Below, one piece after another: positions 1 through 59,232 of a DNA stretch of 64,000 nt. The stretch is taken from assembly GCA_000146465.1 (NCBI GenBank), contig CP001951.1. The stretch is one strand, 5' to 3'. The first letter of the stretch is position 1. Every line of letters begins with the position of its first letter. The notes under the pieces were generated by a model. It was given only the letters and a program-made list of their open reading frames with translations. It was not told the DNA's origin and did not search any database. A program made the position numbers and the translations under genes.

Positions 1-2495
<2,495 letters not shown>

Positions 2496-2520
2496 AATTC
2501 CCCCCAATCTCTCAAATACT

Positions 2521-3811
2521 GATCCTGCTGCTGGTTCTCCAACAGCAGCCATGTTACGACTTATATCTTATCTAACACGAAGGACTCAGACCTTCCAATC
2601 TTCGTCCACTGCGTCATCTTAGATAGCGACGGGCGGTGTGTACAAAGGACAGGGACCCATTCAAAACAACTTGTTCAATCGTTATTACTAGGAATTCCAC
2701 GTTCAGAAGCCCATTACACAGCTTCATCCCTCACAGCAGGCTCCCTCGCCATCTATCGTAGTGCGCGTGCCGCCCGCTTCATCTCAGGGCATAACGGACC
2801 TGTTCTGTTCCATTCCTCCCTTGCCCCAAAGAGCACTGTCAAAGGGTCTCACATCTTACGCAACTTAATCCAAAGCTCACGCCATCCATTTCAAACGGCC
2901 ATGCACCACCGCCGCGCGCATCCCGTCCTCGTTCTCCTGCCCGCTTCAGAACCGGTAAGTTGCCCCGCGTTGAGTCAAATTAAGCCGCACACTCCACTCC
3001 TTGTGGTGTCCTTCCGTCAATCTCTTCAAGTTTCACTCTTGCGAGCATACTATCCCCAGAACCCACATACTCAAGATTTCTCATGCACAACACTATATAG
3101 TCCCGTCCAGTCGGCATCGTTTACTGCTAGAACTAAAACGGTATCTAATCGATTTCGATCCTCTAGCCTTCGTCCTTCATCGTCACATAAGTCCAAGAGC
3201 ACAGCCTTCGCTTCTGTCCGTCCAGTCAGGGTCTTCGTATTTCACCCCTCGCCCAACTATCCGGTGCCCCTCGTCCTCTGCCAAACCTCTTACATCCACA
3301 TCAGGACATAATCCCCCAAACAAAGACATACAAAAGACTACGGACTTTTTAACTGCAGCATTCACCATAGACACTATTGGAGCAGGTATTACCGCGGCTG
3401 CTGGCACCCGACTTGCCCTCCAATCAATCTCGACTCCTTTACACTCGAAAAAAACTCACTTCTCATAACCGCCTCCCCAAAGGATTAGGCAAGTTTCGCG
3501 CCTGCTGCCATCCTTGGACGTAGTAGCCATCTCTCAGGCTCCCTCTCCGGAATCAAACCCCGATCCCCCGTCTCCCGTCTCCGCCTAGTTAGGCCATTAC
3601 CCTAACTACCAGCTGATAGGCCTACAACTTACTTGGCTCGTGTCAAAAACACTCCTAGCCCCCTACCTGCAGTTTCCCGCAGTTACAGCTCTCCCGCCAA
3701 CCAAATCATCGTACTATCACTGAGCCGTCCGTCAATCCCCCACAAGGTTCATCAACATGCATGGCTTAGTCCCAGAGAATAGCATCCACGTCAGGCAGAA
3801 TCAACCTGATG
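2521..3811 (-). rRNA. Small-subunit rRNA (16S-like, ~1.29 kb)
   Basis: Reverse complement of the 5' end CATCAGGTTGATTCTGCCTGACGTGGATGCTATTC...AAGCCATGCATG at 3737-3811. GTGCCAGCAGCCGCGGTAAT at ~3393-3412. GACGGGCGGTGTGTACAAAGG (1390-1400 region) at ~2628-2648. 3' end ...AAGTCGTAACATGGCTGCTGTTGGAGAACCAGCAGCAGGATCA at ~2521-2565. The length is typical of microsporidia. Confidence 0.9.
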
Positions 3812-55839: not shown

Positions 55840-56850
55840 TCAAATGTAGCCATATCTCCATATCTTTCTATAGACCTCTGAAGAATATATGGTTCCATAT
55901 CCTCTGAACGTCTGGCCATATCCGTTTTTTTGATCAGGGAGATAATCAGTTGTATAGAGGATTCTGAGATTTGCAGGCCTTGAGAAACATTCTTTCCTTG
56001 CGATGTTGAACAGAAATGGAGGTTTGGACTTTTTCTGAAAAACTTCTTGCCATTCTATCCCCTCGAAGAAAGGATGTTTTCTGATAGCCATACAATCTCT
56101 CTCCCTATATCCAAGTCTGTCCTTGGGAGAAACAACAAGAAGCTTCGATACTAAGTCCCGGGCATTCTTATCAAAAAATTCCGGAAACTTAATTCTATTC
56201 TTCCTGATTCTTTCAACTGTCGAGGCCATATCAGGTGCTGCAAATGGCGTAGTTCCAGAAAGCATGTGGTATAGTACCATTCCCATCGACCAGTAGTCGG
56301 ACACAGGGCCGATTTCCCCACTCTCTACATAATCTAGGGATGCGTACTCTACGTTCTGCTCAAGATCCCCTATTCCACAATCTATTCTGTTCAAAAAATC
56401 GTATTTCAGCTTCACATGCCCGTCGTCACCTATCATCATACTCCTTGGAGACAGAAACCCATATGAAAGCCCTTTAGAATGTAAGTACTGAACCGCTAGA
56501 AGAATCTCTGCCATATAAAACCTGGATACTTTTGGTGAAAGTCTTTCCTCGGAACTGATCAAATTGACAAGATAGTTCTGTGACTGTTCTGAAAGTAGAA
56601 ACAAATGTTCGTAATCTTGAAATCCACATATTGTGTTGATGAGAAATGGATGCCGTATCCTCGATCGAACGTAATATTCATCTTGTACCATCTCTTGCTC
56701 TCCATATCCTATTATTTTTTTCTTCTTCATAACCCGAAGGCCATAAAGCCCTCCAACCACTTCTCCAACGTCTATAAACACAAGAAACTCTTCCCAAAAC
56801 GGCCCAAGCCCCGTTTTCTCAATACACATTATGTCTTTCTTTCCTATCAT
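55840..56850 (-). CDS. AGC-like protein kinase homolog with degenerate catalytic motifs (probable pseudokinase)
   Basis: Kinase fold is recognisable: YGLRVMKKKKI (VAIK-like Lys), YLHSKGLSY, DYWSMGMVLYHML, DRLG. The catalytic loop reads YGFLSPRSM where HRDLKPEN is expected, and DFG is DFL. Confidence 0.6.
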   Translation of the reverse strand: MIGKKDIMCIEKTGLGPFWEEFLVFIDVGEVVGGLYGLRVMKKKKIIGYGEQEMVQDEYYVRSRIRHPFLINTICGFQDYEHLFLLSEQSQNYLVNLISSEERLSPKVSRFYMAEILLAVQYLHSKGLSYGFLSPRSMMIGDDGHVKLKYDFLNRIDCGIGDLEQNVEYASLDYVESGEIGPVSDYWSMGMVLYHMLSGTTPFAAPDMASTVERIRKNRIKFPEFFDKNARDLVSKLLVVSPKDRLGYRERDCMAIRKHPFFEGIEWQEVFQKKSKPPFLFNIARKECFSRPANLRILYTTDYLPDQKNGYGQTFRGYGTIYSSEVYRKIWRYGYI

Positions 56851-56942: not shown

Positions 56943-57872
56943 TTAGATAAGTAGTTTGATAACCAAATCGAATAGGTTACCCAAAACAGAACTTTGCTCT
57001 TCCACACCTCTCTTTTGGAGATCTGCATCCATGGTCTTTTTTGCTTTTTCAAAGTCCTTCATTCTTTTCTCATTGATTTCCTTGATTCTGCTTCTGTATC
57101 TTTTTTCCACATCCCAGGAAAACAGATTTCTCTGTACAAATATGCCTTTCTGGACCCTTTCAAAAGCACTGTAGAAGTTCTTTCCTAGGTATGATTTTAG
57201 TGTGCCCCGAAAATCACTTATCCCAGTGAAGTGAAGATTGTGAAGAAAGTTCAGAAGATCCAGAAGCCCGTATTCAGGGCCTCCTCGCCATTTTTCAAGT
57301 CTTAGAAGGTTTTCATCAAAGTCCTTGTGATATTCGTTTTCTTTTGTTGAAATAACCACAACCTTTTCCAGTGGTCTATTTAGATGCTCGCTGCCAAACA
57401 TCTTTTTGTCTTTACAATACACCTTATAAGAAATGCAGCCGTAGGGATCAATTCTATTCAACAGAAACCTGCTAAATCCCACAGACGACTCCGAAACATG
57501 GACCAGCTCATATATATGAGCACTATGGAAAAGAAAAAGATCTGTAAATGCCCTCTTGGTGACTAGGAAGTCAAGGTTGAAAAACGAGAACCTCTTCTTT
57601 ATAAGAAAATCCTTACAATCAAATATAACTGTAGGTTTAGGTCGTTCTTGGGGAGGTAAGACAGGAGTTTTTGGCTCTGGATCTTGGAGAAACCTGCATG
57701 CCTTCTCTTTTGCCCGTTTAATGTATCCCATAATGCTTTTGTCTTTGGCCCCATTTGGTCTTCCAAGGATAGCAATCCCAACTCCTAGAGACAACATTGA
57801 TGATGTTATAAAGGGAAACCTTTTCTCCTCCATTCTGCTCCGGAACGCCCCTAGAAGCTTTTCCAGATCCAT
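56943..57872 (-). CDS. TIM50: Tim50-like NIF/FCP1-family HAD-domain protein (mitosomal inner-membrane import component)
   Basis: N-terminal TM segment (FITSSMLSLGVGIAILG). NIF domain PKPTVIFDCKDFLIKKRF...KRAFTDLFL...IYELVHVSES...DPYGCISYKVYCKDKKMF...HLNRPLEKVVVISTKEN is colinear with the Tim50 core. The catalytic DxDx(T/V) motif is degenerate (FDCKDFL), as in Tim50. The track start is a TTG, so the next ATG is used. Confidence 0.5.
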   Translation of the reverse strand: MDLEKLLGAFRSRMEEKRFPFITSSMLSLGVGIAILGRPNGAKDKSIMGYIKRAKEKACRFLQDPEPKTPVLPPQERPKPTVIFDCKDFLIKKRFSFFNLDFLVTKRAFTDLFLFHSAHIYELVHVSESSVGFSRFLLNRIDPYGCISYKVYCKDKKMFGSEHLNRPLEKVVVISTKENEYHKDFDENLLRLEKWRGGPEYGLLDLLNFLHNLHFTGISDFRGTLKSYLGKNFYSAFERVQKGIFVQRNLFSWDVEKRYRSRIKEINEKRMKDFEKAKKTMDADLQKRGVEEQSSVLGNLFDLVIKLLI

Positions 57873-57900
57873 CAAGGGTTATATCCACACAGTCTGTAAT

Positions 57901-59232
57901 CTATCTTCTCAAGAACATTCCCACTCTATTCACAAGATGCATTATAGATGTTTTAAAGCTCCCTACTGCGTCCTTAACCTCCCTTTCAAAGAGTTCTAAC
58001 GCCCTTTGCTCGGTTACCTCCATCTTCAATCTTCCTCTTGCAAATGTAATAATCTCTTCTAAGTCAAACCGGAAGATTTTGTTCTGGAGCAATACACACC
58101 ATAGAACAAAGATCTTTTGGCAGGACCTCCTTATCTGGAGAAACACCTCCCCTGACTTTATAATAAAATCCTGGTAGATAAGTTCGTCGTTTACTAGATA
58201 GTCGCATATGGGCCTGGCAATTGTTATCCTTGGAGAGATGAGCTTTGGATCATTCCCAAACACATAGCTAAAATCCACATGAAAAAATCTTCCATCCCTC
58301 GATACCATCATATTCCCTGGATTTCTATCTCCAACCCCCATCATATAGCAAGCAACCGAGTATCCACAGAGAGTATCTACAAATGTTCTTTTCTTCTGAG
58401 CATTCTGCATCCATCTTGGGTCATTTTCTCCTTCAATATACCTTTCTAAGTCTTCTCTCCCCTTTATTTGAGTAAAGTCTACCCCGTCCACAACTTCCAC
58501 AATCCCTTCTTCTCTGCTCAATGGAATCACCTTGTATGCTACCAGATCCATCTCCACCAACTCCGATATGTATCTTATAGTCTCAAGAACAAACAGATCC
58601 TTTGTCAGGTCGTCTCCCTTCTTGTATATGATCCTGGAGATGCCTTTATCTGTATTCAAAGGAACAAGAATTGGAAATGTAGATGAGGGAAATATCTTGA
58701 TCTCTCGAAGAATCATTTCCTTTACTACTGTATCTGGATTGAACAGAGAGGTACAGTGCCTAATACTTCCCATCCTTGGATGGAGGCATAACGCTCCATG
58801 TAATTTGTACTCTCTTATCTTTGTCTTCCTAGGCGATCCTTGGCAAGTTATGCTGTAGATTCCTCTAACTTCGTTGATCAAGGCCATTTGCCCTTCCAGT
58901 TTCTCCAATATTCCATACTTGGAGTCCAGTGCTAGAAAGCTATTTACAGCATCTCTATATTTCGACTCGTTGCACTCCTCATGAAGCTCAAACCTAATCT
59001 TCCAGAACCTGTTTATTTGGTGCTCAGCAGATAGGTTGTCTCCCGGGTCCTTCCCTCCCAACGAGGGGAAGTATATATACAGACTGCCCACTTTTTGAAC
59101 GCATAAATACTCTGCAATCATCTTCTCGGCATCCTCACTTCTGCTTAAAAGCCTGGAAACACTTCTAGCAAGCTCAGAAATGTCTTCTTTCTCTATCTTG
59201 CATTCAAAAGCACTTCCGCTTAGTTGATCCAT
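57901..59232 (-). CDS. VPS34: Phosphatidylinositol 3-kinase catalytic subunit, Vps34-like (class III)
   Basis: PI3K/PI4K catalytic domain: KKGDDLTKD (GDDLRQD box), catalytic loop MMGVGDRNPGNMMV, activation loop FHVDFSYVFGNDPK (compare GVGDRHLDN...HIDFGYILGRDPKP in Vps34). Compact at 443 aa. Confidence 0.7.
   Translation of the reverse strand: MDQLSGSAFECKIEKEDISELARSVSRLLSRSEDAEKMIAEYLCVQKVGSLYIYFPSLGGKDPGDNLSAEHQINRFWKIRFELHEECNESKYRDAVNSFLALDSKYGILEKLEGQMALINEVRGIYSITCQGSPRKTKIREYKLHGALCLHPRMGSIRHCTSLFNPDTVVKEMILREIKIFPSSTFPILVPLNTDKGISRIIYKKGDDLTKDLFVLETIRYISELVEMDLVAYKVIPLSREEGIVEVVDGVDFTQIKGREDLERYIEGENDPRWMQNAQKKRTFVDTLCGYSVACYMMGVGDRNPGNMMVSRDGRFFHVDFSYVFGNDPKLISPRITIARPICDYLVNDELIYQDFIIKSGEVFLQIRRSCQKIFVLWCVLLQNKIFRFDLEEIITFARGRLKMEVTEQRALELFEREVKDAVGSFKTSIMHLVNRVGMFLRR

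Follow-up and report, generated by a model that had tools for sequence, protein, structure and literature searches.

A predicted AGC-group pseudokinase of Encephalitozoon intestinalis and its relatives across microsporidia

Does a gene that public databases name as a protein kinase encode an enzyme when the residues that define one are missing? The question is raised by an open reading frame (ORF) of Encephalitozoon intestinalis that lies on the minus strand of a 64,000-nucleotide stretch of contig CP001951.1 (assembly GCA_000146465.1), which we refer to as the window. A preliminary description, made from the sequence alone, had marked this ORF as a candidate pseudokinase, and our analysis upholds that proposal: all three defining residues are gone, as are the adenine pocket and the T-loop switch, and the gene is maintained. 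We consider it probable, at about 0.8, that the ORF belongs to a pan-microsporidian family of AGC pseudokinases in which the fold and tail were kept while the ATP site, catalysis and phosphorylation switch were dismantled, and that the protein most likely acts by binding and originated from a growth kinase.

A kinase fold of the AGC group

55840 to 56850, minus strand: complete ORF of the AGC-fold pseudokinase, 336 amino acids plus stop (XP_003073737.1 / ADM12377.1)

The 336 codons fill exactly these positions without interruption, and the product is identical to the E. intestinalis ATCC 50506 protein of those accessions, whose database name is "cAMP-dependent protein kinase". In public records the product is called "cAMP-dependent protein kinase", but also "ribosomal protein S6 kinase" or "cGMP-dependent protein kinase I alpha catalytic domain". 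These names assert an activity that is almost certainly missing, and they could mislead pathway reconstruction and lists of drug targets.

That the protein has a kinase fold is indicated by its match to the Pfam Pkinase domain (PF00069), which reaches 93.8 bits (E = 1.5e-26) where the gathering cut-off is 31.7. With the single sequence as query, the best matches among PDB sequences were yeast PKA Tpk1 (4e-40), AKT1 (4e-39) and S6K1 (2e-38), and with the family profile the best E value improved to about 4e-59; the 60 best PDB matches listed are AGC kinases throughout. These relatives, the active-site tether and hydrophobic motif of the C-terminal tail, and the pocket residues of helices alphaB and alphaC place the protein in the AGC group, which bears out the AGC-like kinase scaffold proposed earlier (Pkinase at 1.5e-26; Tpk1, AKT1 and S6K1 at about 1e-40). 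Identity to the solved active AGC kinases (AKT1/2, p70 S6K1, PKA and PKG) is 24-31%.

Structure prediction gave the same fold. AlphaFold2 run on 14 sequences yielded a predicted local distance difference test score (pLDDT) of 74 with a disordered tail, and run on a 28-sequence family alignment it yielded a pLDDT of 86.5 and a predicted template modelling score (pTM) of 0.87 (five models, 83-86). Tail residues 291-320 of the latter model have a pLDDT of 76-89, and the chain is unstructured only at residues 158-160, 286-288 and 321-336. When the model was compared with solved structures by Foldseek, the best match was activated AKT2-PIF (327 aligned columns), followed by S6K1, PKG and PKA, with a probability of 1.00 to kinase structures. 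We gave up the assignment to a single ancestral AGC subfamily because PKA, S6K and AKT tie in profile scores and fold matches; in Foldseek, S6K1 ties with AKT2.

Catalytic residues, ATP site and activation segment

56437 to 56463, minus strand: dead catalytic loop YGFLSPRSM (residues 130-138), which stands for YRDLKPENI
56389 to 56406, minus strand: KYDFLN (residues 149-154), remnant of T-DFG-xxK, with the DFG Asp deleted or replaced and Asn154 for PKA K189
56734 to 56736, minus strand: Arg39 at the site of the beta3 'VAIK' Lys (PKA K72), placed by the alignments

By sequence, a kinase-fold protein counts as a pseudokinase when the VAIK Lys, the HRD Asp or the DFG Asp is missing, and here all three are gone. 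To compare the family with active enzymes, we counted residues in 26-28 family members and in 8-103 active AGC kinases, using PKA numbering for the latter; alignments were made by single-sequence phmmer, profile hmmsearch, MAFFT in auto mode (14 sequences) and L-INS-i (35 sequences). In all of them, YGFLSPRSM aligns gap-free and column for column to Y-R-D-L-K-P-E-N-I/L, so that the HRD-to-YGF substitution of the preliminary description holds. The catalytic Asp (D166) is Phe132, the catalytic-loop Lys (K168) is Ser134 and the Mg-binding Asn (N171) is Ser137. Family-wide, the D166 position is never Asp and the K168 position never Lys. Asn is found at the N171 position in 23 of 26 relatives, and E. 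intestinalis (Ser in all three strain variants) and a few other lineages have lost it in independent events.

The DFG region has a less certain register. In both HMMER profile alignments, as in the 35-sequence L-INS-i alignment, the DFG Phe is matched by Y150 and the DFG Gly by D151. In the L-INS-i alignment, none of the 26 family members has a residue in the column of the DFG Asp (D184), and downstream of this gap the activation segment runs gap-free to PKA. The Tpk1 profile alignment instead pairs K149 with the DFG Asp, and only the small 14-sequence MAFFT alignment pairs D151-F152 with D-F. Thus, of the DFG-to-DFL substitution described earlier, the string DFL is present at residues 151-153 and the loss of the DFG Asp stands, but the register is doubtful, with D151 mostly aligned to the DFG Gly. 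The "DFL" reading is probably out of register, with Y150 corresponding to the DFG Phe and D151 to the DFG Gly. The choice of register leaves the conclusion unchanged because D151 is not conserved (D19, S3, A3 and E1 in 26 relatives). A search with phmmer, hmmsearch, MAFFT and L-INS-i for an alternative register that restores HRD or DFG found none, and the ambiguity amounts to one residue, at KYDFLN only.

The third defining residue had been sought in the wrong place. The preliminary description assigned a VAIK-like lysine to RVMKKKK; in all alignments, YGLRVM is matched to YAMKVL, so the beta3 Lys is Arg39 and the KKKK run is helix alphaB. Of the 26 family members, 25 have Arg at the beta3 site, where all 103 active AGC kinases have Lys. 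At the positions that mark a competent kinase, the protein therefore has R39 (K72), F132 (D166) and S137 (N171), and the D184 column is a gap or non-Asp.

Other parts of the ATP site and the regulatory elements around it have changed as well:

56794 to 56811, minus strand: degenerate glycine-rich loop GLGPFW (residues 14-19), whose third Gly (PKA G55) is Trp19
56716 to 56727, minus strand: KKKK (residues 42-45) in helix alphaB; K43 is PKA K76, which lines the PIF pocket
56665 to 56679, minus strand: alphaC segment E58 to R62; Glu58 (PKA E91) is kept, and Arg62 occupies regulatory-spine position 3 (RS3; PKA L95)
56332 to 56367, minus strand: activation segment, P+1 loop and APE remnant DLEQNVEYASLD (residues 162-173), placed by the alignments

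The position of PKA G55 is aromatic in the family (W14, F3, Y3) and Gly in 8 of 8 active AGC kinases. At V57 and A70, the adenine-contacting positions of the catalytic spine, the family has variable and mostly polar residues (E21 and G37 in E. intestinalis). In helix alphaC, Glu58 is present in 26 of 26 family members and Arg62 in 25 of 26, at an RS3 position that is Leu in 96% of active AGC kinases. K43 is found in all 26 members and falls within a helix of the model (43-48). We ruled out that a lysine of the KKKK run replaces the VAIK Lys, given that K43 corresponds to K76 in alphaB, which active AGC kinases conserve equally.

The activation segment has no phosphorylatable Thr at the T197 position, which is D162 here and Asp, Gly or Glu across the family. 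T201 is N166, and the APE motif reads SLD, with the acidic residue (D173) kept. All of the basic residues that receive the phosphate are replaced: H87 by Met54, R165 by Gly131 and K189 by Asn154, the last in 26 of 26 members. Likewise, of the acidic residues by which PKA contacts basic (RRxS) substrates and the inhibitor sites of its regulatory subunits, E127 is Tyr and E170 and E230 are variable across the family, with R136 and H195 at these positions in E. intestinalis.

Compared with a PKA catalytic subunit, the protein thus differs at D162, M54, G131, N154 and Y93, and its hydrophobic motif is followed by 18 more residues. Compared with the S6K/RSK kinases, it has lost both phospho-acceptors (D162 in the T-loop and Gly after the hydrophobic motif), S6K1 and yeast PKA tie in their scores against the family profile, and the tail layout is AKT/S6K-like rather than PKA-like.

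Retained C-lobe and tail, and conservation across genera

56281 to 56298, minus strand: alphaF motif DYWSMG (residues 185-190), with the structural Asp and Trp (PKA D220 and W222) kept
55942 to 55959, minus strand: remnant LYTTDY (residues 298-303) of the C-tail active-site tether, aligned with YFDxxF
55897 to 55926, minus strand: (D/N)GYG and hydrophobic motif F315-R-G-Y318 (residues 309-318), with Gly at the phospho-acceptor position after the motif

D185 and W187 of the alphaF motif are present in 26 of 26 family members, and Tyr130 of the Y/HRD motif, the E208-R280-type pair (D173 and R245) and HPFF are also retained, in agreement with the conserved C-lobe that had been described. In the tail, LYTTDY aligned with KYFDQQF and RYFEDHL in the 14-sequence MAFFT alignment, and the model has a pLDDT of 89 at residues 291-300. 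The hydrophobic-motif residues F315 and Y/F318 (PKA F347 and F350) are each found in 26 of 26 members, with a model pLDDT of 76-78 for the motif, and G310 and G312 are invariants specific to the family relative to active AGC kinases. The motif is trailed by about 18 residues rather than standing at the protein end, as it does in PKA. Residue 309 (55924-55926, minus strand) is Asn in ATCC 50506 and Asp in E. intestinalis isolate P0001 and in the other 11 sequences of a 12-sequence family alignment, an intraspecific polymorphism at a nearly invariant site.

The degenerate motifs are conserved beyond E. intestinalis. The orthologues of E. romaleae, E. hellem and E. cuniculi share 77-78% identity with the window protein and have the same dead motifs; P0004, a strain-variant form of E. 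cuniculi ECU10_0570 in the same 90% cluster as CAD25776.2, is 77% identical. An intact ORF with the same degenerate motifs is present in every orthologue and in all three strain variants of E. intestinalis, which excludes a sequencing or frameshift artefact. For E. cuniculi, the gene model (L003 5001-6011) has been revised from the 348-residue CAD25776.1 used in kinome papers to the 336-residue CAD25776.2, and the shorter start agrees with the ORFs of E. intestinalis, E. romaleae and E. hellem.

When 1.84 billion representative proteins were searched with the family profile, about 20 further full-length, single-domain members came up, with canonical AGC kinases ranking below them. The family was found in at least 12 microsporidian genera, which include Encephalitozoon (four species), Pancytospora, Enteropsectra, Glugoides, Hamiltosporidium and Binucleata, as well as Astathelohania, Edhazardia, Spraguea, Trachipleistophora and Vavraia. 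Because the named members span these genera, the dead state is old and phylum-wide. Variants of one signature occur in every member: Arg at beta3, Arg at RS3, a non-Asp residue at D166, Asn at K189 and a (D)GYG-x-x-F-x-x-Y/F tail. The E. intestinalis form of this signature, RRFSNGF, matches that of all Encephalitozoon orthologues and places the window protein within the clade. Only one member, P0043 (373 amino acids, from a 1.5 kb Logan contig), has a beta3 Lys (YLKAI), and it too has no catalytic Asp and no DFG; it may stand for a lineage that branched early or for an intermediate state. No active early-branching relative was found among the top 150 matches of the representative-protein search.

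Selection has preserved the gene much as it has preserved its neighbours. Pairwise ratios of nonsynonymous to synonymous substitution (dN/dS, NG86 method) among the four Encephalitozoon species are approximately 0.05-0.09, compared with 0.04-0.11 for four neighbouring genes, and the amino-acid identity of 76-79% among these species lies within the range of the neighbouring genes. The ORF is intact and of steady length, about 320-345 amino acids, in at least 12 genera. No other eukaryotes have kinomes as small as those of microsporidia, with about 30 kinases in E. cuniculi, and the TOR, AMPK, PDK1 and MAPK pathways are missing from them. An intact dead kinase that is under strong selection throughout the phylum implies a needed non-catalytic function in parasites that shed dispensable genes.

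The gene order PI3_PI4_kinase, NIF, kinase, adh_short, proteasome subunit and nucleotide transporter is the same in four other genomes. The following features accompany the pseudokinase in the window:

56943 to 57875, minus strand: NIF-domain ORF directly upstream of the pseudokinase (310 amino acids, Pfam 4.1e-14)
57901 to 59232, minus strand: PI3_PI4_kinase-domain ORF two genes upstream of the pseudokinase (443 amino acids, Pfam 4.9e-19)
27 to 3811, minus strand: complete microsporidian ribosomal RNA (rRNA) unit, with the large-subunit gene at 27-2407 and the small-subunit gene at 2517-3811

The NIF-domain protein reads FDCKD where the phosphatase motif DxDxT is expected and has a hydrophobic segment at its N-terminus, features that may point to a non-catalytic, Tim50-like subunit of mitosome import. 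In Hamiltosporidium, too, a NIF gene is found 2.8 kb from the orthologue of the pseudokinase (L006 8810-9730). We dropped this neighbour as a clue to function, as residual synteny is the simplest explanation and the protein looks like a non-catalytic Tim50. PI3K and PI4K enzymes have GDRHxxN and DFG at the motifs where the PI3_PI4_kinase ORF has GVGDRNPGN and HVDFS. The His-to-Asn and Gly-to-Ser changes are kept in E. romaleae, E. hellem, E. cuniculi and one related Logan-assembly genome, and the ORF still has the catalytic-loop Asp and Asn and the DFG Asp. The rRNA unit has a guanine-plus-cytosine content of about 50%, compared with about 40% in the rest of the window, and its position at the start of the window indicates that the window is an E. 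intestinalis chromosome end.

Possible role and relation to known systems

What could such a protein do? We propose that the hydrophobic motif F315-x-x-Y318 docks in the protein's own alphaB/alphaC pocket, lined by K43, and would thereby steady the N-lobe, where Arg39 may pair with the retained alphaC Glu58. Nucleotide binding would have been lost through Trp19 in the G-loop, the polar residues at the V57 and A70 positions, the Arg at K72 and the deletion of the DFG Asp. The phosphotransfer machinery is likewise predicted to be lost, with Phe at D166, Ser at K168, Asn at T201 and, in E. intestinalis, Ser at N171. Switching by phosphorylation of the T-loop and the hydrophobic motif would be impossible with T197, H87, R165 and K189 replaced and Gly after the motif. 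Because neither phosphate transfer nor phosphorylation switching is expected, the protein presumably acts by binding, as a constitutive non-catalytic scaffold or allosteric partner; the scaffold or regulatory role suggested in the preliminary description, rather than phosphotransfer, is therefore also our best inference from the sequence. The AKT/S6K-like layout of the tail suggests ancestry among the growth-control AGC kinases, and the protein may descend from an AKT/S6K/Sch9-like kinase of which only a non-catalytic function was kept once its upstream activators PDK1 and TOR had disappeared from microsporidia.

Several considerations weigh against this interpretation. Some pseudokinases called from sequence have proved active through relocated residues or other chemistry, as in WNK, CASK and SelO. 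The remodelled cleft is strongly conserved (R39, E58, R62, N154 and mostly Asn at N171), so a ligand may still bind. The docking of the tail, the R39-E58 pair and the occlusion of the adenine pocket by Trp19 are what we infer rather than observe, and an active-like conformation cannot be claimed because the Arg at RS3 argues against a canonical regulatory spine. With respect to origin, the family profile scores Tpk1 (203.7 bits), S6K1 (203.1), PKC-theta (191) and AKT1 (190) in close succession. The dN/dS values are only approximate because dS is saturated (1.3-1.9 or more). Finally, a literature search by accession and locus tag (the tags mostly guessed) gave only the kinome papers PMC2078597 and PMC4280135 and found no functional study of the family and no data on partner, localisation or expression.

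The conserved cleft raises the question of whether the protein is still an enzyme, either a kinase with relocated or non-canonical residues or a catalyst of another nucleotide-dependent reaction. R39, R62, N154 and E58 are newly invariant, each being present in 25 or 26 of the 26 members; purifying selection on the family is strong, and WNK, CASK and SelO are precedents. However, no conserved acidic residue lies at or beside D166 or D184 (D151 is Asp in 19 of 26 and aligned to Gly), the V57 and A70 positions are variable and mostly polar or charged, and the G-loop carries Trp or another aromatic residue. Moreover, the last Mg ligand, N171, was repeatedly lost in independent events, something that a need for it in catalysis would not have allowed. 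We regard residual enzymatic activity as improbable. Equally doubtful is a further proposal, in which the protein is a remnant of a lost PDK1/TOR-AKT/S6K/Sch9 axis whose cleft (R39, R62, N154 and E58) now binds an anionic or phosphorylated ligand; if true, a phosphate 'writer' would have turned into a 'reader' that ties the growth or translation of the parasite to nucleotide status or to signals derived from the host. A decoy PKA catalytic subunit, which would hold both microsporidian PKA regulatory subunits and buffer cAMP signalling, would fit the database name, the best single PDB match (Tpk1) and the report that E. cuniculi has two PKA R-subunit homologues and one active PKA only (PMC2078597). 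Yet the residues that bind the R subunit or pseudosubstrate are gone (pT197 is Asp, Gly or Glu, E127 is Tyr, and both E170 and E230 vary), Asn has taken the place of K189 and Gly that of R165, and the tail is of the AKT/S6K type, with a YxxxY tether at the YFDxxF spacing and about 18 residues beyond the motif, which makes the decoy less probable still.

Two other explanations would deny the gene either a function or its dead state. It might be the decaying relic of a former kinase, functionless and heading for loss in a shrinking genome, as might be expected of highly reduced genomes whose kinomes hold several predicted dead kinases and of a family reported missing from Enterocytozoon bieneusi (PMC4280135). 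This is effectively refuted by a dN/dS of 0.05-0.09 and 76-79% identity, equal to adjacent housekeeping genes, by the invariance of the family-specific positions and by an ORF intact at steady length in at least 12 genera; genomes so compact would not hold a useless ORF of 1 kb for so long, and we give decay very little credence. That the protein is an ordinary active AGC kinase (PKA, PKG or S6K) whose substitutions stem from misalignment or sequence error is suggested by the database product names only. Four independent alignments agree on how the catalytic loop and beta3 are matched, the three E. intestinalis strain variants do not differ in their motifs, all orthologues keep them, and the uninterrupted 336-codon ORF with well-aligned flanks leaves no room for a change of frame, which makes this explanation the least credible of all. 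We thus favour a conserved pseudokinase that acts by binding, and consider it a reasonable target for interaction and structural studies.

The finding is a rediscovery, in E. intestinalis, of an inactive-kinase prediction that was already published in 2007. Table 1 of Miranda-Saavedra et al. (2007; PMC2078597) gives the E. cuniculi orthologue CAD25776 (Q8SR57, ECU10_0570) as 'Inactive (K, D1)' and as an unpaired AGC kinase, and the same study found no homologues of TOR, PDK1 or AKT/Sch9/Ypk in E. cuniculi. ECU10_0570 is 77% identical to the window protein over its full length and has the same neighbourhood and dead motifs, and the published call of a pseudokinase with no yeast orthologue agrees with ours; E. 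intestinalis has additionally lost the catalytic-loop Asn (SPRSMM compared with SPSNMM). That study scored the Lys and first Asp only, and the DFG deletion, the RS3 Arg, the tail and pocket, and the phylum-wide spread are not described there. Li et al. (2014; PMC4280135) classified ECU10_0570 as AGC/RSK/p70 (CAD25776.1 in their Table S1) and reported that the RSK/p70 kinases of E. cuniculi, N. bombycis and N. ceranae lack VAIK, HRD and DFG and are inactive, with none in E. bieneusi. These kinases belong to the same gene family. Such proteins are treated there as 'pseudogenes' or inactive, with p70 S6K assigned by best hit, whereas here PKA, S6K and AKT tie, and the gene is not a pseudogene because it is under purifying selection. 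To the published prediction we add a corrected residue map, the retained tail and pocket, and the invariants R39, R62, N154 and GYG; we also show how widely the family occurs and that purifying selection acts on it, and note that its present product names assert an activity that is almost certainly missing.

Among known systems, the active kinases AKT1/2, S6K1, PKA (Tpk1 and PRKACA) and PKG share with the microsporidian protein the fold, the tether and FxxF/Y tail, the alphaB Lys, the alphaC Glu, the alphaF DxW and an E208-R280-type pair. In contrast to them, the microsporidian protein lacks the ATP, Mg and catalytic residues, the T-loop Thr and its basic pocket, has no phospho-acceptor after the hydrophobic motif, does not conserve the acidic residues that contact substrate and carries an Arg at RS3. 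A further likeness is to human RPS6KC1 (RSKL1), RPS6KL1 (RSKL2) and SgK494, which are AGC-group pseudokinases that have lost canonical catalytic residues and are presumed to be non-catalytic. These proteins are not orthologous, and the RSKL proteins have extra PX and MIT domains, whereas the microsporidian protein consists of a kinase domain and tail.

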